Shown: piece by piece, positions 1 through 52,419 of the stretch
Position numbering within the stretch: the first letter of the stretch is position 1
How the letters are laid out: every line of letters starts with the position of its first letter
From: Phenylobacterium sp.
GTDB taxonomy: Bacteria > Pseudomonadota > Alphaproteobacteria > Caulobacterales > Caulobacteraceae
Assembly: GCF_022402485.1 (NCBI RefSeq)
Contig: NZ_JAKRSA010000015.1
Location: 49,270 to 113,269, forward strand
Length of the DNA stretch: 64,000 bases
Direction: 5' to 3'
Translations under genes and position numbers: made by a program
Notes under the pieces: generated by a model
Seen by the model: the letters and a program-made list of their open reading frames with translations, nothing else
What the model was told of the DNA's origin: nothing
Database searches by the model: none

Positions 1-1526
1 GCCTGATAGAAGCCGCCCAGTTCATCCACCAGACCCAGGGACTTGGCCTGGGCGCCGGTCCAGACCCGGCCGCGGGCGATCTCGTCCACCCGCTCGGGCG
101 TCAGATCACGACCCCGGGCCACCCGCACGATGAAGGCGTCGTAAACATCATCCATCATGGTCGAGAAGGCGGCTTCCTGGGCCGGAGTGAACCCGCCGCC
201 CATGCCATAGGCCCCGGCGAACTCGCCGCCGACCCCTAAGCTGCGCATGTCGACACCAAACTCGGCCAGGGCCGGGCCGAGGGCGAGCTTGCCGCCATAG
301 ACGCCGATGGAGCCGGTCAGGGTGGTGGGCTGGGCGATGATGGCCGAGGCTTCTGACGCGATCCAGTAACCCCCGGAGGCACCATAGGTCCCCATGCTGA
401 CCACCACCGGCTTGTCGGCGGCCTTGGCGGCGCGGACCGCGGCGAGGATCTGTTCGGACGCGGTGTCTGACCCGCCTGGCGAATTGACCCGCAGAACCAC
501 GGCCTTGATGTCGTCGTCCTCGGCGGCGTCATAGAGCGCCTGGGCCACATCGTCGGAGAAGATCATGGCGCTGGGCGCCAGGGGGTTCGACAGGCCGTTC
601 TGACCGGTGATGATCGGACCTTCGGCCTCGATCACGGCGATGGTCGGCCCCGAGCCATCCTCTGTGCCTGCGCTGCGGGCATAGGCTGCCAGGTCCAGCA
701 GGCGGGCATTGTCGCCAGCCGCCGTCAACATCGCCTGCTGGGCCTCATGCAGATGGCCGAGCTTGTCGATCAGGCCCAGCTCCAGGGCCCGGGCGGCATT
801 ATAGGGGCCAGCCTCCAGCCGGCTGCGCAGCACGGCAGGCTCCATCTCCCGGTCGCTGGCGGCCAGACCCAGGGTGCTCAGATAGACCGAGTTCATCCAC
901 GACAGCTGGGCGGTACGGTGGGCGGCGGTGTAGTCGCTGTGGAGATAGGTGTTGACCGCGTTCTTGAATTCCTTGCGCTGTTCGAAGTCTGGCTCAACGC
1001 TGTATTGGTCGAAGAAGCGCTTGAAGAACACGTCCTCTACCGCAAGTCCGGTGGCCTGCAGGCCGGCACCCGGCTGCATCCAAAGCTCACCTGCAGCCGC
1101 CCCAACCATGTAGGTGGAGGTCACCACGCCGGCCTGATAGAGGCCCTGGCTGTGGGCGATCACCGGCTTGCCAGCCGCTTCGAAGCGCCTGAGGGCCAGT
1201 CGAATTTCATCGGCAGCGCCGGGCTCCATGCCCACCTCGGGCAGGCGAACCAGAAGCCCCTTCACCCGCCGGTCGTCCTCGGCCCGGTGCAGGGCCTCGA
1301 TGACCGACATCACTGAGGGCGAGCCCCCGCCAAAGGCCGCCAGGGGGCCTTGGGAATCCTGGTCGGTCAGGGCACTGCGCAGGTCCAGCTGCAGGACCAC
1401 CGCCCCCGGCACAGGGGCTGGCCGTGTCGCCCCCGCGGCGATGACGATCAGCAGGAAGGGCACGCCCACCAGAAACAGGGTCAGGCCGGCGAACACGCCA
1501 GCCATGGTGGTCAGGAACTGCTTCAT
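1..1526 (-). CDS. sppA: Signal peptide peptidase SppA (protease IV), 3' end outside the window
   Basis: Manual translation from ATG at 1526: [14 protein letters not shown]..., N-terminal TM segment, [46 protein letters not shown]. Absent from the ORF track because it runs off the window edge. Confidence 0.93.
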
Positions 1527-1654
1527 CGGGGGCCCGTGCAGGGAGGAGGATGTTATCTCAACCCTATATCGGGGCCCGTTGCGGGGAAATGAAGAGCATC
1601 TGACGGGCGATCAGCCAGATCACCCGCCAGAGGCGCAATATGTCGCTCTTGGTC

Positions 1655-3244
1655 CTAGGGCGCGCTGAGGGTGGGCAGCTCATAGGTGACGCCGGCCCCG
1701 GGGCCGAGCGGCAGGTCGAGGGCGGTCCATCCCAGCACCATGATCATGCCCGCTGCCAGGAAGGTGAGCGAGTAGGGGATCATGACCGCCATCAGCGAGC
1801 CGACCTTGAAGTCCTTCTGGTAGCGCTGGGCAAAGCCGAGGATCAGCGGGAAGTAGACCATCAGGGGGGTGATGATGTTGGTGGTGGAATCTCCGACCCG
1901 GTAGGCTGCGGTGCTCATTTCCGGGCTGACCCCCAGCAGCATCAGCATCGGCACCAGGATGGGGGCCAGGGCCGCCCACTTGGCCGAGGCTGACCCGATG
2001 AACAGGTTGATGCAGGCCGCGAGGAGGACGATGCCCGACAGGAGCAGCGGGGTTGGCAGGCCAGAGGCGCGCAGGCCCTCAGCGCCATGGATGGCGACAA
2101 TGGCCCCGAGGTTTGACCAGTTGAACATGGCCACGAAATGGGCGGCCACAAAGGCCAGCACGATATAGGGACCCATCTCGGCCATGGACTGTCCGGTCAG
2201 GCGGACCACATCGCCCTGGCTCTTGACGGTGCCAGCCGCCGCGCCGTAGGCGACGCCGCAGACCAGGAACAGCAGGAAGAAGCCCGCCACCAGGGAGGAA
2301 TAGAACGGAGTCAGCCGCTCGCCGGGACCGCCCTCGGCATTGATGAAGGGGGCCGCCGGCCCAAGGGTCATGGCTGTCCAGAGGCCGATCACCACCACCG
2401 CGCCAATACCCGCCCAGATGAGGCCCTTACGCTCGCGGGCACTGGCCCCCTCGGCGTCCCCCTCGGCCTCGGCCGCATCGATCGCGGGCGACAGCGGCAC
2501 CCAGGGGCCGAGCTTGGGCTCTACGATCTTGTCCGTGACCCACCACCCCAGGGGCGTGAAGATGACGGTCATGGCCAGGATAAACCACCAGTTGCCGGCG
2601 ATATTGGCCGTCCAGCTGGGGTCCAGAAGCCGCGCAGCAGGCTCAGTGATCCCCAGCAGCAGGGCGTCCAGATGGCCTGGAAAGATGTTGGCGGAGAACC
2701 CGCCCGAGACCCCGGCGAAGGCCGCAGCTATACCCGCCACCGGATGGCGGCCGGCCGCAGCAAACACCACGCCGGCCAGGGGGATCAGCACCACATAGGC
2801 GGCGTCGGCGGCGTGGTTGGCGATGATGGCCACAAAGATGATGATCGGCGTCAGCAGGGCCTTGGGGGCCTTGGAGATGCTGGCCTTCATGGCCGCCGTG
2901 AACAGTCCCGTCCGCTCGGCCACCCCGGCCCCCAGCATGACGGTGAGCACGAAGCCCAAGGGGGCGAAGCTGGTCAGGGTGCGCGGCATGTCCACAAACA
3001 GCCGCTGCAGGTTCTCTGATGTGGCCAGGCTGACGGCGGTCAGGGTCTCGCCGGTGGCCGGATTGACCGCCGAGGCACCAAGGCCCGCAGCGATCATGCT
3101 GCCCACGAACAGGGCGACGATCATCCAGACGAAGATGACCACAGGATCGGGCAGGCGGTTGCCCACCTTCTCGATCATCCCCAAGACCCCGGACTGCATG
3201 GCCATCTGGCTACCCCTTTGCAATTCTGCGCCAAACTTCGCCAT
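1655..3244 (-). CDS. abgT: AbgT-family transporter (p-aminobenzoyl-glutamate/antimetabolite)
   Basis: IEKVGNRLPDP, FAGVSGGFSAN, YRVGDSTTNIITPLMVYF motifs; multi-TM. The start may be ~40 nt downstream. Confidence 0.9.
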   Translation of the reverse strand: MAKFGAELQRGSQMAMQSGVLGMIEKVGNRLPDPVVIFVWMIVALFVGSMIAAGLGASAVNPATGETLTAVSLATSENLQRLFVDMPRTLTSFAPLGFVLTVMLGAGVAERTGLFTAAMKASISKAPKALLTPIIIFVAIIANHAADAAYVVLIPLAGVVFAAAGRHPVAGIAAAFAGVSGGFSANIFPGHLDALLLGITEPAARLLDPSWTANIAGNWWFILAMTVIFTPLGWWVTDKIVEPKLGPWVPLSPAIDAAEAEGDAEGASARERKGLIWAGIGAVVVIGLWTAMTLGPAAPFINAEGGPGERLTPFYSSLVAGFFLLFLVCGVAYGAAAGTVKSQGDVVRLTGQSMAEMGPYIVLAFVAAHFVAMFNWSNLGAIVAIHGAEGLRASGLPTPLLLSGIVLLAACINLFIGSASAKWAALAPILVPMLMLLGVSPEMSTAAYRVGDSTTNIITPLMVYFPLILGFAQRYQKDFKVGSLMAVMIPYSLTFLAAGMIMVLGWTALDLPLGPGAGVTYELPTLSAP

Positions 3245-46871: not shown

Positions 46872-47864
46872 CTAGGGCAGGAAGTCGAGGGTGTAGGCCG
46901 AGCGGGCATCCAGGTCGGCCGGATAGACCCCCTGCGCCTTGGCCATATCGATGAATTCGTTCCAGCGGGCCTCGGTCATCTGGCCGGTCAGGGCAGGATC
47001 ACCGCCATCGACGATACCGTAGGACTTCAGCTTTGCCCGAGCCTGATCCAGCACGTCCTGCGTCATCTCGGGGTTATCGGCCTTGATCAAGGCGTCGCCT
47101 GGCGACGGGTCGCCGTCCAGATAGGACCTCCAGCCCGCGATACTGGCCTCGACAAAGGCGCGGACGGCTTCGGGATTCTCGGCGATCAACGGGTCCCGCG
47201 CCAGGACCATGGTCGCATAGCCAGGATAGCCGTTGTCGGCCAGGAGGAAGACCTGCGGGGTGAAGCCCGCCTCTTTCTCGATCGTATAGGGCTCCGAGGT
47301 GACATAGCCCTGCTGGGCGACGCGCTTGTCCGACAGGAAGGGCGCGGCGTTGAAGGTGTACTTGCGGACCTGATCATCGGTGAAACCGTACTTGGCCTTC
47401 AGCCACACCCAGAAGGCCGTGACCGAAGCGTCCGACAGCAGGATCGGCCGACCTTTCAGGTCCTCGATGGTCTCGATCCCCTGATCAGGGTGGGCGATGA
47501 GGACCTGGGGATCCTTCTGCATGAAGGCGGCCACGGCCTTCACCGGAGCCTTCTCCTGGGCCAGGTTCAGAACAATGAAGCTGTTGGAGCCCATGCCCAT
47601 GTCGACCGCGCCGGCCGCCAGAAGCTGCGGGACGTTCACCCCTGGCCCGCCCTGGACGATCTCGACCTTCAGGCCCCGCTTCTCATATTCGCCCGTGGCC
47701 AGCGCCTGGTAAAAACCGCCGTGCTCCGCCTGAGCGCGCCAATCGGTGGCGAAACGGACCGTGGTCAAGCCCTCTGCGCCGGTGACCTCGTCTGTGTCTG
47801 TTGCCGGCGCGCAGGCGCAGGCCAAGGCGGCCAAAGCAATGGCGAAGTGGCGCAGCAGCTTCAT
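46872..47864 (-). CDS. ABC substrate-binding lipoprotein (NMT1/THI5-like)
   Basis: Lipobox LACAC, TDWRAQAEHGGFYQA, GYVTSEP. Confidence 0.88.
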   Translation of the reverse strand: MKLLRHFAIALAALACACAPATDTDEVTGAEGLTTVRFATDWRAQAEHGGFYQALATGEYEKRGLKVEIVQGGPGVNVPQLLAAGAVDMGMGSNSFIVLNLAQEKAPVKAVAAFMQKDPQVLIAHPDQGIETIEDLKGRPILLSDASVTAFWVWLKAKYGFTDDQVRKYTFNAAPFLSDKRVAQQGYVTSEPYTIEKEAGFTPQVFLLADNGYPGYATMVLARDPLIAENPEAVRAFVEASIAGWRSYLDGDPSPGDALIKADNPEMTQDVLDQARAKLKSYGIVDGGDPALTGQMTEARWNEFIDMAKAQGVYPADLDARSAYTLDFLP

Positions 47865-47935: not shown

Positions 47936-50035
47936 TCATGCGACGGCGGGAATGACCTGCGCGTCGGAGGGTTTACGGGGGTCCTGGGTCCAGCGGGCCA
48001 GGGCATTGTTCAGGGCTTCGATCTGGATAGGCTTGCCCAAGGTGTCTGACATGCCCGCCCGGCGGCACCTTTCCATCATCTCAGGCATCACATCAGCGCT
48101 CATGGCGATGATCGGGACCTGGCCGGCTGGCCCCTCCAGCGCGCGGATCATTCGCGTCGCCTCCACCCCGTCCATGACGGGCATATGGATATCCATCAAG
48201 ATCGCATCAAAGCCACCCTTGCGGGCAATCTCCAAGGCCTCTGCGCCGTCGCAGGCCAACTCGACATCGCAACCCAAGAGGTCGAGGACGGTAGCCCCAA
48301 GATCACGGTTCATGGCGTGGTCGTCCACCAGCAACACCCTGACCCGGCCCAGGGCCTGGGCCGGCGCGGCCTCGAGGTCGGGCTCGGTCTGCGCCCGATC
48401 GGCGCGGGCATGGTCGGCAACGATCTCGAACCAGAACGTCGAGCCGGCACCGGGCTGGCTCTTGACCCCGATCAGCCCTCCCATGGCCTCCACCAGGCCC
48501 TTGCAGATCGCAAGACCCAGGCCCGATCCGCCGAAGGCGCGGCTGACTGAGGAATCCGCCTGGGAGAACCTGCGGAACAGACGGGGCATGAGGTCGCGGG
48601 GGATCCCGACCCCGGTGTCCTGCACCTCGAACCGAAGCAGCACGTCTGAGCCCTGATCCCGGGCGGTGAGCTTGAGAAGCACCTGTCCGGCGGCGGTAAA
48701 TTTCACGGCATTGCTCAGCAGGTTCAGCAGGATCTGCCGTACCCGCAGGTCGTCGATCATCACCAGCGCGTCTGTTGGCCCGGTCTGTTCCAATCGAATG
48801 TCCAACCCCTTAGCCTCGGCTGACGGGGCAATGATCTCCAGGGAGTCCTGAGCCACGCCGACTGCCGTCTGGGGTTGAAGGGCGAGCTCAACCTCGCCGG
48901 TCTCCAGGCGCGAATAGTCCAGAATGTCGTTGACGACCGCCAGCAGCGACCCGCCCGCTCGGTGGATGAGCTCCAGTTGCCGGCGGGCCTCATCGGGTAG
49001 GTCGTCCCGTCGGCGAAGGGTCTGGGTGAACCCCAGAATGGAGTTCATCGGCGTGCGGATTTCATGACTCATGGTGGCCAGAAACTCGCTCTTGGCCGCA
49101 TCGGCCGCCTGGGCCCTGGCTTGGGCGCGTTTGGCCGCCCTTGTGCGCATGTCCAGGAGCCGCCGGGTCCGGGCCTGTTCCGACACGATCAAGGCCACCG
49201 ACAGGCTGGTGAACAGGGCGGTGGCGATGATGAACTGTAGGTTGAGGATCTGCTGGGGTTGGCTCAGGCCGCTTTGATCTGGGGGGCCGAGGGCAACCAT
49301 GGTGATCGAGATGATCGCCATCATCAGCGTCGACAGGGCAACGCCCCTTGGTCCCAGGCGGAAGGCTGCGGCCACCAGAGCCGGGGTCAGCAGCATGGGC
49401 GCTGGCACGGTGTGGGGCATATAGGCCACCGCGCTGGTGACCGCCACGAGCCCATAGACAATGAACTGTTCGACGTTGGACCGGCTGGGCCTCTGGCTCT
49501 CCCGGTGATCGACGAGCAGCAGCACTGTGGGGAGGGTGATCGCCATACCCAGCGCGTTGGCTGTGAACCAGCCGATCATGATCTCTTGGGCGGAGTGTGT
49601 GAGATACCCCAGTGTCATCCCGGCGATCAGGGCCGTAAGCGCTGTGGTGGGGACGATGGCGAACACAGCGATCCGCAGCAGAGTCGAGAGATCTGAGATG
49701 CGCCGGCGGGTTCCGCAAATACGCCGTACCAGCAAGGCCGCGACAGTCGCCTCCAGCAGGTTGAGGCCCGCATAGATCGGCAGGGCGCTCAGGGGCGCGC
49801 CTATCGAGATGTTGACCGCCACGCCGGCGAGGGTGCAGGCCGCCGCCAGGACGACCGCACGGCGAAGGGGAAGAAGGACAAAACCCGCGGCGAGCAGGCC
49901 ACTCGGCAGCCATAGCGCGGCCACCCCGCCGCTTTCCCGGGTCAGGGCGACACAAAACAGCGCCGTCGCGCCGAAGCCGAGGGTAAGAACCAGCCCCAGC
50001 AAAGTATCGCGCTGGAGGTCCTTGCTGATGACCAT
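47936..50035 (-). CDS. Hybrid sensor histidine kinase/response regulator with MASE1-like membrane domain
   Basis: LWLPSG TM block, FLATMSHEIRTP, GGSGLGLAI, receiver LLVDDH..LMDIHMPVMDG. ATG 50035 preferred over the ORF-track start. Confidence 0.9.
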   Translation of the reverse strand: MVISKDLQRDTLLGLVLTLGFGATALFCVALTRESGGVAALWLPSGLLAAGFVLLPLRRAVVLAAACTLAGVAVNISIGAPLSALPIYAGLNLLEATVAALLVRRICGTRRRISDLSTLLRIAVFAIVPTTALTALIAGMTLGYLTHSAQEIMIGWFTANALGMAITLPTVLLLVDHRESQRPSRSNVEQFIVYGLVAVTSAVAYMPHTVPAPMLLTPALVAAAFRLGPRGVALSTLMMAIISITMVALGPPDQSGLSQPQQILNLQFIIATALFTSLSVALIVSEQARTRRLLDMRTRAAKRAQARAQAADAAKSEFLATMSHEIRTPMNSILGFTQTLRRRDDLPDEARRQLELIHRAGGSLLAVVNDILDYSRLETGEVELALQPQTAVGVAQDSLEIIAPSAEAKGLDIRLEQTGPTDALVMIDDLRVRQILLNLLSNAVKFTAAGQVLLKLTARDQGSDVLLRFEVQDTGVGIPRDLMPRLFRRFSQADSSVSRAFGGSGLGLAICKGLVEAMGGLIGVKSQPGAGSTFWFEIVADHARADRAQTEPDLEAAPAQALGRVRVLLVDDHAMNRDLGATVLDLLGCDVELACDGAEALEIARKGGFDAILMDIHMPVMDGVEATRMIRALEGPAGQVPIIAMSADVMPEMMERCRRAGMSDTLGKPIQIEALNNALARWTQDPRKPSDAQVIPAVA

Positions 50036-50169
50036 GGGTGTCCTGCTCCCCGAACTGGGGACACTATCGTCAAGCTGTGGCGCCAAATGGTTAAGTCGTA
50101 CAGCCCTGCATAGGCCAAGGGCGCGCCCGACGGTCTCGCACCACACGGCCAGGATGCCGCCCATGGCAA

Positions 50170-50432
50170 GAGGGCGGCGCTGCGGCAGGCCGCAGCGTCG
50201 CCCTCATTCCAGACCCTTTCGGACCTGTGTCGCTAGGTCAGCGTGACTTCGAGCACGGGCTTCCCCGCAGGTTTCCGTCACACTGGTGTCTCTGGCACCT
50301 GGGCGCCGGGTCTCCCCGTCGCCGCGGGTCCTGAGGCCTTCCGCTCCATCTGCCTCTCGGTTTCCCGGTTGGCCAGGGCTGCGGTCCCTCTCGACCCCTT
50401 GACTTTGACCCCGAACCCGTTAGGCAGCAAGC
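50170..50432 (-). ncRNA. Candidate structured non-coding RNA (~265 nt, unnamed)
   Basis: No credible ORF. Several hairpins with purine tetraloops (CGG-gaaa-CCG, GGCGaCGGG-gaga-CCCGgCGCC, GCGGG-gaag-CCCGT, CAGGTCC-gaaa-GGGTCTG), a 16-bp terminal stem (50170-50205) and an upstream CATACT -10-like hexamer. Confidence 0.5.
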
Positions 50433-50562
50433 GCCCCGAGTATGGCTCTTTGCGTCACCTTGTGACTCGGCGGTGGACAAGCTGGGGACCGTCTGTGGAC
50501 GCGCATCCCTTTATCCTGAAACTTCAGAGAAAAAATTGTCCACAGGAAGATGCGGCTGCCGT

Positions 50563-52419
50563 TCAGCGGCCCGCCTCAAGGGCTTCCCGGCGTTCTTCCA
50601 GCTCCAGCCACTCCAGTTCAGCCGCCTCAAGCTTCTCCCGAGCCTTTGCCAGGGCGAGGCCGAAGCGATCAAAGGCCGCTGGATCACGGCCATACAGCGC
50701 TGGATCAGCCAACTGTTGTTCCAGGAGCGCGATTTGCCCAGGCAAGTCGGCGATCAGACCGTTCAGTTCCTCCAGCCTGCGCTGCTCCTTGTAGGACAGC
50801 TTTGCCCCCTTGGTCTTGAGGGTCCCTGAACCGGAGGCAGATGGGGGCACCGACACAGGTGCCGAGCCCGTCGACAGGGGCTGTCCCCGGCGTCCACCGG
50901 GGGCCTTGGCTGGTGAGACGCCAAAGAAGCCGGGGTTCTGGCTCAGGAAATCGAGCCAGCCTCCGGGGGTCTCCACCACCTGACCCCGTCCATTCAGGCC
51001 GATGGTGGAGGTGGCCAACCGGTCGACGAAATCCCGATCATGGCTGACCAGGATCAAGGTGCCCTCATAGTCGGAGAGCATCTCTTCCAGCAGGTCGAGG
51101 GTCTCCATGTCCAGGTCGTTGGTCGGCTCGTCCAGAACCATCAGATTGGCCGGCTGGGCCAGGGCCCTGGCCAGCAGCAGGCGGTTTCGCTCACCCCCCG
51201 ACAGGCTGCGAACCGGCTGGCGGATCTGAGCGTCGGTGAACAGAAACTCCTTGGCATAGGCCGCCACATGCTTGGGCGCGCCCCGAACCATGATCTGGTC
51301 CCCGCCCAGGGGCGCTAGAGCGTCCTTGAGCAGCATGTCGTCCTTCAGATCGGCGCGGGCCTGATCGATATAGGCCACCTCAAGATTGGTCCCGAGGATT
51401 ACCTGGCCGGAGTCGGCTGGCAGGGTCCCGAGCAGCAGCTTGACCAGGGTGGTCTTGCCCGCCCCATTGGGCCCGACCACGGCGATCCGATCGCCACGGA
51501 GGATACGGGTGGAAAAATCGTCCAGGATCACCCGATCGCCGAAACGCTTGGAGAGGCCTTTGACTTCGACCACGCGCTGGCCTGAGGTCCCGGCTGAGGC
51601 CACGCCCATGGACATCGATCCCCGAGTGTCTCGCAGGCGCTCAGCCTTGGCCTCGCGCATCTCCATCAGCCTTCGGCGGCGGCCTTCATTTCGGGCCCGA
51701 CGGCCGGTGACGCCCCTGGCCAGCCAATGGGTTTCACGCTCCAGGGCCTTGTCCTGGCGGCGCGCCTCGTCGGCCTCAGCGGCGGTAAGCTGCTCGACCC
51801 AGGCGTCAAAGGCGCCAAATCCCCGGTCGAGTTTTCGCACCTTGCGGTTCTCAAGCCAGAAGCAGCGCTGTGTGACCCGTTCGAGGAAGGCGCGGTCGTG
51901 GCTGACGATCAGCACGCTGGCCCGACTGGCGGCGATGGCCGTTTCCAGGGTTTCAATCGCCAGGATGTCCAGGTGGTTGGTCGGCTCATCCAGCAGCAGG
52001 ACATCGGGGTCCTCGGCCAGGGCCCGGGCCAAGGCGACCCGGCGGGTTTCTCCCCCGGAGAGGCCGATGGCGGCCTTGCTGGGGTCGAGGCCAAAGCTCT
52101 CAAGCGCCGTGGCGGCCTCATGAGGTGCCGCCCCGCCTGCGGTGGCGTGGTCGAGCAGGGTCTCGCCCTCGATCAAGGGCTCCTGCAGCACATAGGCCAC
52201 CTTCGTGCCCGGCGTGACCGCGCGCTCGCCGTCATCGGCCTCCATCAGGCCCGCCAGAATGCGCATCAGCGTCGACTTGCCCGCCCCATTGCGCCCAACC
52301 AAGGCGGCGCGGCTACGGGGTTCCAGCGCCAGATCGACGCCGTCGAACAGCATGCGGGGCCCGTCAGCGAGACGGACATTCTTGAGGGCAAGGACGGGGG
52401 GCTTCATGGGGGTAGGCAC
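50563..52419 (-). CDS. uup: ABC-F family ATPase (Uup-like)
   Basis: Two ABC cassettes (GRNGAGKST; GPNGAGKTT), DEPTNHLD/DEPTNDLD, C-terminal KLSYKEQR...WLELEE. Confidence 0.88.
   Translation of the reverse strand: MPTPMKPPVLALKNVRLADGPRMLFDGVDLALEPRSRAALVGRNGAGKSTLMRILAGLMEADDGERAVTPGTKVAYVLQEPLIEGETLLDHATAGGAAPHEAATALESFGLDPSKAAIGLSGGETRRVALARALAEDPDVLLLDEPTNHLDILAIETLETAIAASRASVLIVSHDRAFLERVTQRCFWLENRKVRKLDRGFGAFDAWVEQLTAAEADEARRQDKALERETHWLARGVTGRRARNEGRRRRLMEMREAKAERLRDTRGSMSMGVASAGTSGQRVVEVKGLSKRFGDRVILDDFSTRILRGDRIAVVGPNGAGKTTLVKLLLGTLPADSGQVILGTNLEVAYIDQARADLKDDMLLKDALAPLGGDQIMVRGAPKHVAAYAKEFLFTDAQIRQPVRSLSGGERNRLLLARALAQPANLMVLDEPTNDLDMETLDLLEEMLSDYEGTLILVSHDRDFVDRLATSTIGLNGRGQVVETPGGWLDFLSQNPGFFGVSPAKAPGGRRGQPLSTGSAPVSVPPSASGSGTLKTKGAKLSYKEQRRLEELNGLIADLPGQIALLEQQLADPALYGRDPAAFDRFGLALAKAREKLEAAELEWLELEERREALEAGR

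Follow-up and report, generated by a model that had tools for sequence, protein, structure and literature searches.

A structured RNA of Phenylobacterium and related genera, predicted to be a separate gene preceded by a DnaA-box-like array

Introduction

Several large bacterial RNAs, such as the raiA motif, OLE, ROOL, GOLLD and HEARO, are encoded by stand-alone genes, are at least 200 nucleotides (nt) long and fold into multiple stems around a junction, with covarying helices and GNRA loops. Large orphan noncoding RNAs (ncRNAs) of this type have a narrow phylogenetic range, a conserved neighbourhood without a clear cis role and a function that is not deducible from the sequence (for raiA, see PMC10861870). 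Here, we describe an RNA with the same set of traits in a Phenylobacterium sp. of the Caulobacteraceae. It lies on the minus strand of a 64,000-nt stretch of DNA (NCBI RefSeq assembly GCF_022402485.1, contig NZ_JAKRSA010000015.1, positions 49,270 to 113,269), which was analysed as a whole and is called the window; positions below are those of the window. Judged from sequence comparison, 50395..50164 of the minus strand is a separate gene for a structured ncRNA of ~232 nt, with its own sigma-70-type promoter and a terminal hairpin, located between uup and the gene for a hybrid kinase. Unlike the raiA motif, OLE, ROOL, GOLLD and HEARO, it belongs to a different phylum, and it has no Rfam match in sequence or structure to any of them. 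To our knowledge, it is also the only RNA of this type with a conserved array of DnaA boxes before its promoter. New large structured RNAs are rare in bacteria and have repeatedly led to new biochemistry.

In Escherichia coli, the dnaA and nrdAB promoters are regulated by DnaA, and a spacing of 11 base pairs (bp) is known from the arrays of low-affinity sites in oriC. The promoter of the present RNA differs from known DnaA-regulated promoters in that its product is a structured RNA and not a protein, that its array is strictly phased at 11 bp and that binding is predicted from the motif. Parallels are found in Caulobacter crescentus, in which DnaA is a transcription factor at promoters with one to six boxes, with up to six in the hdaA promoter; like the hdaA, gcrA, ftsZ and mipZ promoters of this bacterium, the present one has TTATCCACA-like boxes upstream of a sigma-70-type promoter (PMC3193534). 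The same species also has an alphaproteobacterial ncRNA, CcnA, with a promoter under the control of a master cell-cycle regulator, in this case CtrA; located at the replication origin, CcnA is ~180 nt long and base pairs with the 5' untranslated regions (5'UTRs) of ctrA and gcrA (PMC8959179). CcnA and the present RNA have no sequence relation.

Two described RNA motifs are named for the same two gene families that neighbour the present RNA. The uup motif and the NMT1 motif are small, simple cis-regulatory motifs, the latter being found upstream of NMT1-type genes (PMC5737381). Neither of them was matched here at E <= 1 to 10; the uup motif is part of the 5'UTR of ABC-F genes, and the present RNA is found on the 3' side of uup. 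A later report described the NMT1 motif as a xanthine/uric-acid riboswitch.

Known families other than these were also searched. With the 4227 models of Rfam 15, positions 49000-51500 of the window gave, at E <= 10, nothing beyond chance matches to parts of the terminal hairpin (18-26 bits, compared with cut-offs of 52-70 bits), and seven diverse homologous loci gave no match at E <= 1. An initial annotation, made from the letters of the window without any database search, had not recognized a known family in this RNA, and the Rfam results agree with it. In the literature, including three genome-wide surveys of ncRNAs, no description of the RNA was found. 6S RNA (RF00013) was considered and rejected: the genome has a candidate elsewhere (G000:C17:3826-3989, minus strand, 44.8 bits), and the present RNA is a four-way junction and not the rod with a central bubble of 6S RNA. 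The score of this 6S candidate is just below the Rfam gathering score of 46.4, and standard annotation may miss it. A CsrA sponge of the CsrB/RsmZ type was likewise rejected, as CsrA (PF02599) has no match in the RNA's own genome, which is 100% complete; nine GGA triplets are present in the RNA, mostly in stems, junctions and internal loops.

Structure and Covariation of the RNA

The RNA gene and its parts are the following:

50164..50395, minus strand: RNA gene of ~232 nt, from full-model matches of the covariance models R1 and R2, folding-energy z-score and consensus architecture
50229..50395, minus strand: core closed by P1, GUCG-AG-AGG (50395-50387) with CCU-AG-CGAC (50237-50229)
50341..50384, minus strand: arm A, with P2 (CCGC/GCGG, CC/GG), P3 (GCC/GGC) and P4 (CGG/CCG) and a GAAA cap
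50288..50337, minus strand: arm B, an irregular long hairpin P5a-P5b-P5c-P6 with a GAGA cap
50239..50285, minus strand: arm C, with P7/P8 (CAGUGUGAC/GUCACGCUG), a purine-rich internal loop and P9 (GCGGG/CCCGU)
50210..50227, minus strand: P10 hairpin, CAGGUCC-GAAA-GGGUCUG (helix 12, 95% paired, five of seven pairs with double changes)
50170..50205, minus strand: terminal G+C-rich hairpin of 16 bp (helix 13, 95% paired, 10 of 16 pairs with double changes)

Judged by the promoter, the RNA is predicted to start at G50395, which is the first base of P1; it ends at an uncertain point of the conserved tail UCUUGCCAUGG, past the terminal stem that ends at 50170. Between these limits (50395..50164), the minimum free energy (MFE) is -116.1 kcal/mol, compared with -97.0 +/- 4.6 kcal/mol for 200 dinucleotide shuffles, none of which folds as well (z = -4.11); the wider span proposed in the initial annotation gives z = -2.6 against its shuffles. 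The centroid and MFE folds of the 232-nt RNA are nearly identical, and the MFE architecture matches the consensus structure that was derived independently from relatives.

This structure, with 67 pairs, was tested on 73 distinct homologues aligned with the covariance model R1, which itself carried only 24 pairs. The proportion of cells paired was 87.4%, compared with 80.0% in shuffled controls (reached in 0 of 500) and 32-43% when the partners were slid. Double changes occurred in 49 of the 67 pairs (27.5 when shuffled, at most 30 when slid), and the covariation score was 0.240 (0.128 and at most 0.065, respectively). Once the structure was added to the model, giving R2, the scores of distant members rose from 42-66 to 86-107 bits. 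With 316 G.U cells to 145 A.C cells, the excess of G.U indicates that the RNA is read from the minus strand of the window. A protein-coding origin of the conservation was rejected on account of indels of 1-2 nt and mixed lengths modulo 3, open frames being uninformative at 69% G+C. The RNA of several helices that had been proposed on this strand is real and beyond chance, both in its folding energy and in its covariation, and it is conserved among relatives in sequence (BLASTN, covariance models) as well as in structure.

The core is a four-way junction closed by P1, a helix of 9 bp with tandem A.G/G.A pairs in its middle. At pair 2/230 of this helix, CG (n = 33), UA (n = 30) and UG (n = 8) replace one another, and helices 1 and 2 are 96-99% paired. 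Compensatory changes of the same kind are found in arm A, at pair 13/74 in P2 (UA, n = 27; CG, n = 21; UG, n = 21) and at pair 19/69 (GC, n = 59; CG, n = 9), and P4 is lengthened in some clades by an inserted helix. Column-wise covariation could not be used for the middle of arm B, whose length varies too much, and this arm was assessed from folds of each sequence: it is a single unbranched hairpin in 70 of 72 homologues, with double changes at P5a and P6 pairs and a P6 loop that is GNRA in all 72. In arm C, every pair of helices 8-11 shows double changes; the P9 loop is GAAG in the window and GCGA in most relatives. The loop of P10, the sole pyrimidine-rich loop of the RNA, is not conserved: it reads CCCAAC in 44 of 72 members, and the window's clade has a tetraloop here. 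No part of the RNA is more conserved than the terminal hairpin, which is presumed to be an intrinsic terminator; beyond it, a tail of ~11 nt, UCUUGC(C/U)AUGG, is conserved. Most conserved bases of the RNA are purines located in junctions and internal loops. A search by eye for an 11-nt receptor of the GAAA loops found none in a paired context.

These data bear on the seven helices that had been drawn in the initial annotation. Five of them have covariation: CGG-GAAA-CCG (P4), GGCG-a-CGGG-GAGA-CCCG-g-CGCC (P5c/P6), GTGTGAC/GTCACGC enclosing GCGGG-GAAG-CCCGT (P7-P9), CAGGTCC-GAAA-GGGTCTG (P10) and the terminal stem (50205-50170). The other two, GAGGC/GCCTC and GGTG/CACC, did not stand, as their bases pair otherwise in the consensus (P3, P5a and P5b). 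The three GNRA loops and the count of nine GGA triplets are borne out by direct reading.

Distribution

BLASTN hits to the element came from 24 of 36 genomes within the genus, and none came from the 24 genomes that represented the order's other families. A third of the homologues in the genus and every one in other genera escaped BLASTN alone and were recovered by covariance models. With R1, the RNA was present in 10 of 10 sampled Phenylobacterium genomes and gave full-length matches in other genera of Caulobacteraceae, here numbered g41, g37, g39 and g35. Named isolates that carry it include Phenylobacterium aquaticum KACC 18306, Phenylobacterium sp. Root1290 and LjRoot97. The structure-aware R2 detected the RNA in 8 of 30 Caulobacteraceae among 150 genomes of the order and in 0 of 120 from five other families; among 150 genomes of the class, it returned nothing credible. 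A pattern scan of genome contigs gave many chance matches outside Phenylobacterium, none of which carried the RNA, and in several genomes of g41 and g39, the RNA was not detected even with lax filters. From these samples, the predicted family is confined to Caulobacteraceae.

Outside Phenylobacterium, the forms matched by R2 come from g16, g35, g37, g39 and g41, and some of them are long and divergent: that of g16 measures 362 nt, of which 142 nt are inserted in arm B, and that of g35 measures 310 nt. The g16 form is nevertheless aligned end to end by R2 (E = 6e-11), and the Phenylobacterium form is ~130 nt shorter, its arm B being without the insertion. The genome of the window has a single copy of the RNA according to both R1 and R2. 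In one genome of g37 (G121), two copies of the RNA gene are arranged in tandem, ~210 nt apart (L163:1048-1291 and 1501-1738, minus strand).

Promoter and DnaA-Box-Like Array

Two promoter elements lie upstream of the predicted start:

50425..50430, minus strand: -35 element TTGCTG, of which TTGC is invariant in the family
50402..50407, minus strand: -10 element CAAAGT (N-A-N-N-N-T), with invariant A at -11 and T at -7

Sigma-70-type promoters are most conserved at these positions, namely TTG at -35, A at -11 and T at -7. In the present family, 64 of 68 upstream regions carry TTG at precisely -35, where the information content is maximal; the spacer to the -10 element is 17 bp, and across 64-68 loci, among them the copies linked to rnd (see below), the -35, -11 and -7 positions vary little or not at all. 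The -10 hexamer is otherwise poor (CAAAGT in the window, CACCGT in many relatives), which suggests a promoter that depends on an activator. Other readings of the conserved letters were tried and discarded: a sigma-54 promoter at GG..TTGC (wrong spacing, and GG not conserved, by eye), a second -35 element in the invariant TTGC of the 3' tail (no -10 at the right distance) and a pairing of the invariant 5' GCTTGC with GCGAGC or GCAA, which is broken without compensation in several clades, the element being the -35. The conserved promoter puts the start near 50395, so that ~49 nt of the span first claimed for the RNA are promoter DNA; the -10-like GC-CATACT proposed at 50439-44 is not conserved in relatives.

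Upstream of the promoter, the present analysis adds a feature that the initial annotation had not noted, an array of 9-mers resembling DnaA boxes:

50461..50502, minus strand: DnaA-box-like 9-mers in one orientation, 11 bp apart, from the window letters and family-wide peaks
50502-50494, minus strand: GCGTCCACA, at position -107
50491-50483, minus strand: CGGTCCCCA, at position -96
50480-50472, minus strand: TTGTCCACC, at position -85
50469-50461, minus strand: CGAGTCACA, at position -74

Across the family, up to five boxes occupy fixed positions from -107 to -63, all in the same orientation and with a period of 11 bp. Over 58 non-redundant upstream regions aligned on the predicted start, the mean match to TTATCCACA is 5.8 of 9 at -96, 5.5 at -85, 4.6 at -63, 4.1 at -74 and 3.7 at -107, against a background of 2.15 +/- 0.74. 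Of 68 loci, 30 have a box with at most two mismatches at -96 and 19 have one at -85, and in two loci (L161 and L162), a perfect TTATCCACA stands at -96. The array is present in uup-linked and rnd-linked copies, and in g16, g37, g39 and g41. The 3.08-Mb genome of the window contains one phased pair of boxes with at most two mismatches, and such arrays are therefore not common background. The motif and its phasing argue that the RNA promoter is probably controlled by DnaA.

In a subgroup of Phenylobacterium (loci L010, L129, L017, L140 and L075, positions -96 to -77), the first two boxes read TTGTTAACAGTTTATTCACA. This sequence weakens the match to the DnaA box and yields TTAAC-N7-TTCAC, which resembles a CtrA site; regulator use may have shifted or become dual in this subgroup.

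Genomic Context

The genes around the RNA in the window are the following:

50563..52419, minus strand: uup, an ABC-F ATPase (Pfam ABC_tran x2 and ABC_tran_CTD), the conserved neighbour upstream of the RNA
47936..50035, minus strand: hybrid kinase of 699 amino acids (aa) with MASE1, HisKA, HATPase_c and REC domains (Pfam)
46872..47864, minus strand: NMT1/THI5-like ATP-binding cassette (ABC) substrate-binding protein (Pfam)

In the minus-strand reading direction, the gap between uup and the kinase is 527 nt, and the RNA gene lies inside it. In most loci and in other genera, uup is found upstream of the RNA (tblastn), and the downstream neighbour in most lineages is an NMT1-type binding protein (L157 and L159 included). 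The order uup, RNA, NMT1 binding protein, all on the same strand, is found in Phenylobacterium and in genera g16, g35, g37 and g41; in g39, a major facilitator superfamily (MFS) transporter gene is found downstream. The MASE1 kinase directly follows the RNA only in the closest relatives. It seems to have been inserted, in this clade only, between the RNA and the NMT1-type ABC operon, since in most relatives the NMT1 gene comes directly after the RNA, and in the window the operon is still present after the inserted kinase. In many Phenylobacterium genomes, a second copy of the RNA is found after rnd, the gene for RNase D. These rnd-linked copies face a convergent gene, either Ppx/GppA (L014) or an RTX-repeat gene (L181), and thus have no gene to lead.

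Proposed Role and Alternative Explanations

The explanation that we favour, with moderate confidence, is a stand-alone, probably DnaA-controlled RNA that acts in trans through its structure. We take it to be a stand-alone gene in view of the variable downstream gene, the convergent gene faced by the rnd copies and the lack of a covarying antiterminator in our scan; its own conserved promoter, the terminal hairpin, the covarying four-way junction and the GNRA loop of P6 in 72 of 72 sequences likewise support the discrete structured ncRNA that was one of the two possibilities first raised for this locus. According to the proposed mechanism, an oligomer of DnaA would bind the phased array cooperatively, just upstream of the promoter with the poor -10, and would activate it or possibly occlude it. 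The level of the RNA would then report DnaA activity, that is, the state of replication and of the cell cycle, and the RNA would act in trans through its shape, most likely via a protein or ribonucleoprotein partner. It probably does not act by base pairing with mRNAs or by control of the next gene. The constant GNRA loop of P6 and the lack of conservation in the pyrimidine-rich loop of P10 are consistent with action through shape.

Several observations weigh against this explanation. The tail UCUUGCCAU past the terminal hairpin is a poor U-tract, and the window's own boxes are degenerate, with 2-4 mismatches each, and weaker than those of most relatives. The homologues used for covariation are related and not independent, and the shuffle control overstates significance. 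The uup-linked RNA keeps its place upstream of the same-strand NMT1-type ABC operon in five genera, and the neighbouring genes indicate no partner protein.

The constant place before this operon would fit a cis-acting leader, i.e., a riboswitch or attenuator in which a large aptamer senses a ligand or a protein and a terminator gates read-through into the NMT1/THI5-type ABC operon or, in the window, first into the kinase and next into the operon. Riboswitches that target NMT1 genes are known (NMT1 motif, PMC5737381), and the size of the RNA, its multi-way junction and its GNRA loops resemble those of large aptamers. Nonetheless, we regard a leader as improbable. The same-strand order of uup, RNA and NMT1 gene holds in Phenylobacterium, g16, g35, g37 and g41, but the rnd-linked copies have no downstream gene on their strand (convergent Ppx or RTX), g39 has an MFS gene there, and the downstream genes do not form a functionally coherent set across members. 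In the window, the operon does follow the kinase, yet the 2.1-kb kinase insertion was tolerated in this clade with the RNA unchanged; a long leader of the MASE1 kinase, the other possibility first raised, does not agree with the presence of this gene in the closest relatives only and of NMT1, MFS or convergent genes elsewhere. The last hairpin could serve as the terminator of an expression platform, but it is the most conserved part of the RNA, and no covarying antiterminator was found in an all-against-all scan of helices, which did not include a dedicated analysis of kinetics or alternative folds. One candidate, 5' GAGAGGG with 3' CCCUCUU, was dismissed for its lack of covariation in clades with GACAGGA or GAAAGG. 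Moreover, ~70 to 200 nt separate the RNA from the next start codon, and at many loci this gap contains a promoter-like CTTGGAA-N14-CCCTA.

A promoter of its own and a terminal hairpin are also features of small RNA (sRNA) genes, and the RNA could be a conventional base-pairing sRNA in which a single-stranded seed, such as the C-rich loop of P10, pairs with mRNAs, with or without Hfq. The CCCAAC-type loop of 44 of the 72 members could pair with G-rich sites, but the window's clade and g41 have GNRA or UUCG tetraloops in its place, and no seed is conserved. Most of the 232 nt are locked in covarying helices, purines in junctions and internal loops make up most of the conserved bases, and the RNA is larger and far more structured than typical sRNAs; a base-pairing sRNA thus seems quite unlikely. 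We give very little weight to the further idea that selection acts on the DNA, the locus being a DnaA-titrating or DnaA-reactivating element (datA- or DARS-like) with RNA conservation as a by-product, or with a transcript that is only the 3'UTR of uup. The phased array of DnaA-box-like sites is indeed present, and in many loci the uup stop codon lies ~20-30 nt upstream of it, such that transcription of uup may run in. However, conservation reaches ~230 nt past the boxes, where compensatory changes keep the helices and the bias of G.U over A.C is that of one strand; boxes and helices are separated by a promoter in which positions -35, -11 and -7 are invariant; and the unit of boxes, promoter and RNA follows a different gene, rnd, in the second copies.

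If the trans-acting, DnaA-controlled RNA is accepted, it is tempting to see it as the effector arm of an undescribed DnaA circuit, in which it would bind a protein machine, for example one of replication control, of translation (Uup) or of RNA processing (RNase D). We put this forward tentatively and consider it rather unlikely; if it were true, replication initiation would be coupled to another core process. A phased DnaA-box-like array before an RNA gene, in two genomic contexts and in several genera, is of interest in a family that includes the main bacterial cell-cycle models, and if DnaA drives the RNA, its control beyond protein genes would be testable in Phenylobacterium, which is culturable and genetically tractable. 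The well-defined fold, with its four-way junction, three GNRA-capped arms and compensatory changes, is suited to structural work.

Other Features of the Locus

The longest frame of the kinase (742 aa) opens at an ATG at 50164, within the conserved tail of the RNA. This is probably not the true start of the kinase, as in the 699-aa version (start at 50035), probably the actual protein, MASE1 already starts at residue 13. Automatic annotation may therefore over-extend the kinase gene across the 3' end of the RNA.

Right after the uup stop codon (50565-50563), a short hairpin followed by a T-run forms a terminator-like site (50555-50540). Inside it, the window letters contain a further site:

50536..50544, plus strand: inverted, near-consensus DnaA-box-like site TTGTCCACA

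Past the RNA, a motif CTTGGAA/CTTCCAA - N14 - (G)CGCCCTA(C/G) is conserved at a distance of 20-60 nt in L012, L013, L016, L021, L025, L048, L096, L098 and L107. In many loci, it is located between the terminal hairpin and the NMT1 gene, and it looks like a promoter, possibly of the sigma-32 type. In two other loci (L065 and L038), the 3' half of the terminal hairpin (…CCGGGCGACCGGAGCGTCGCCCTCTTGC) is partly repeated ~30 nt past the RNA.

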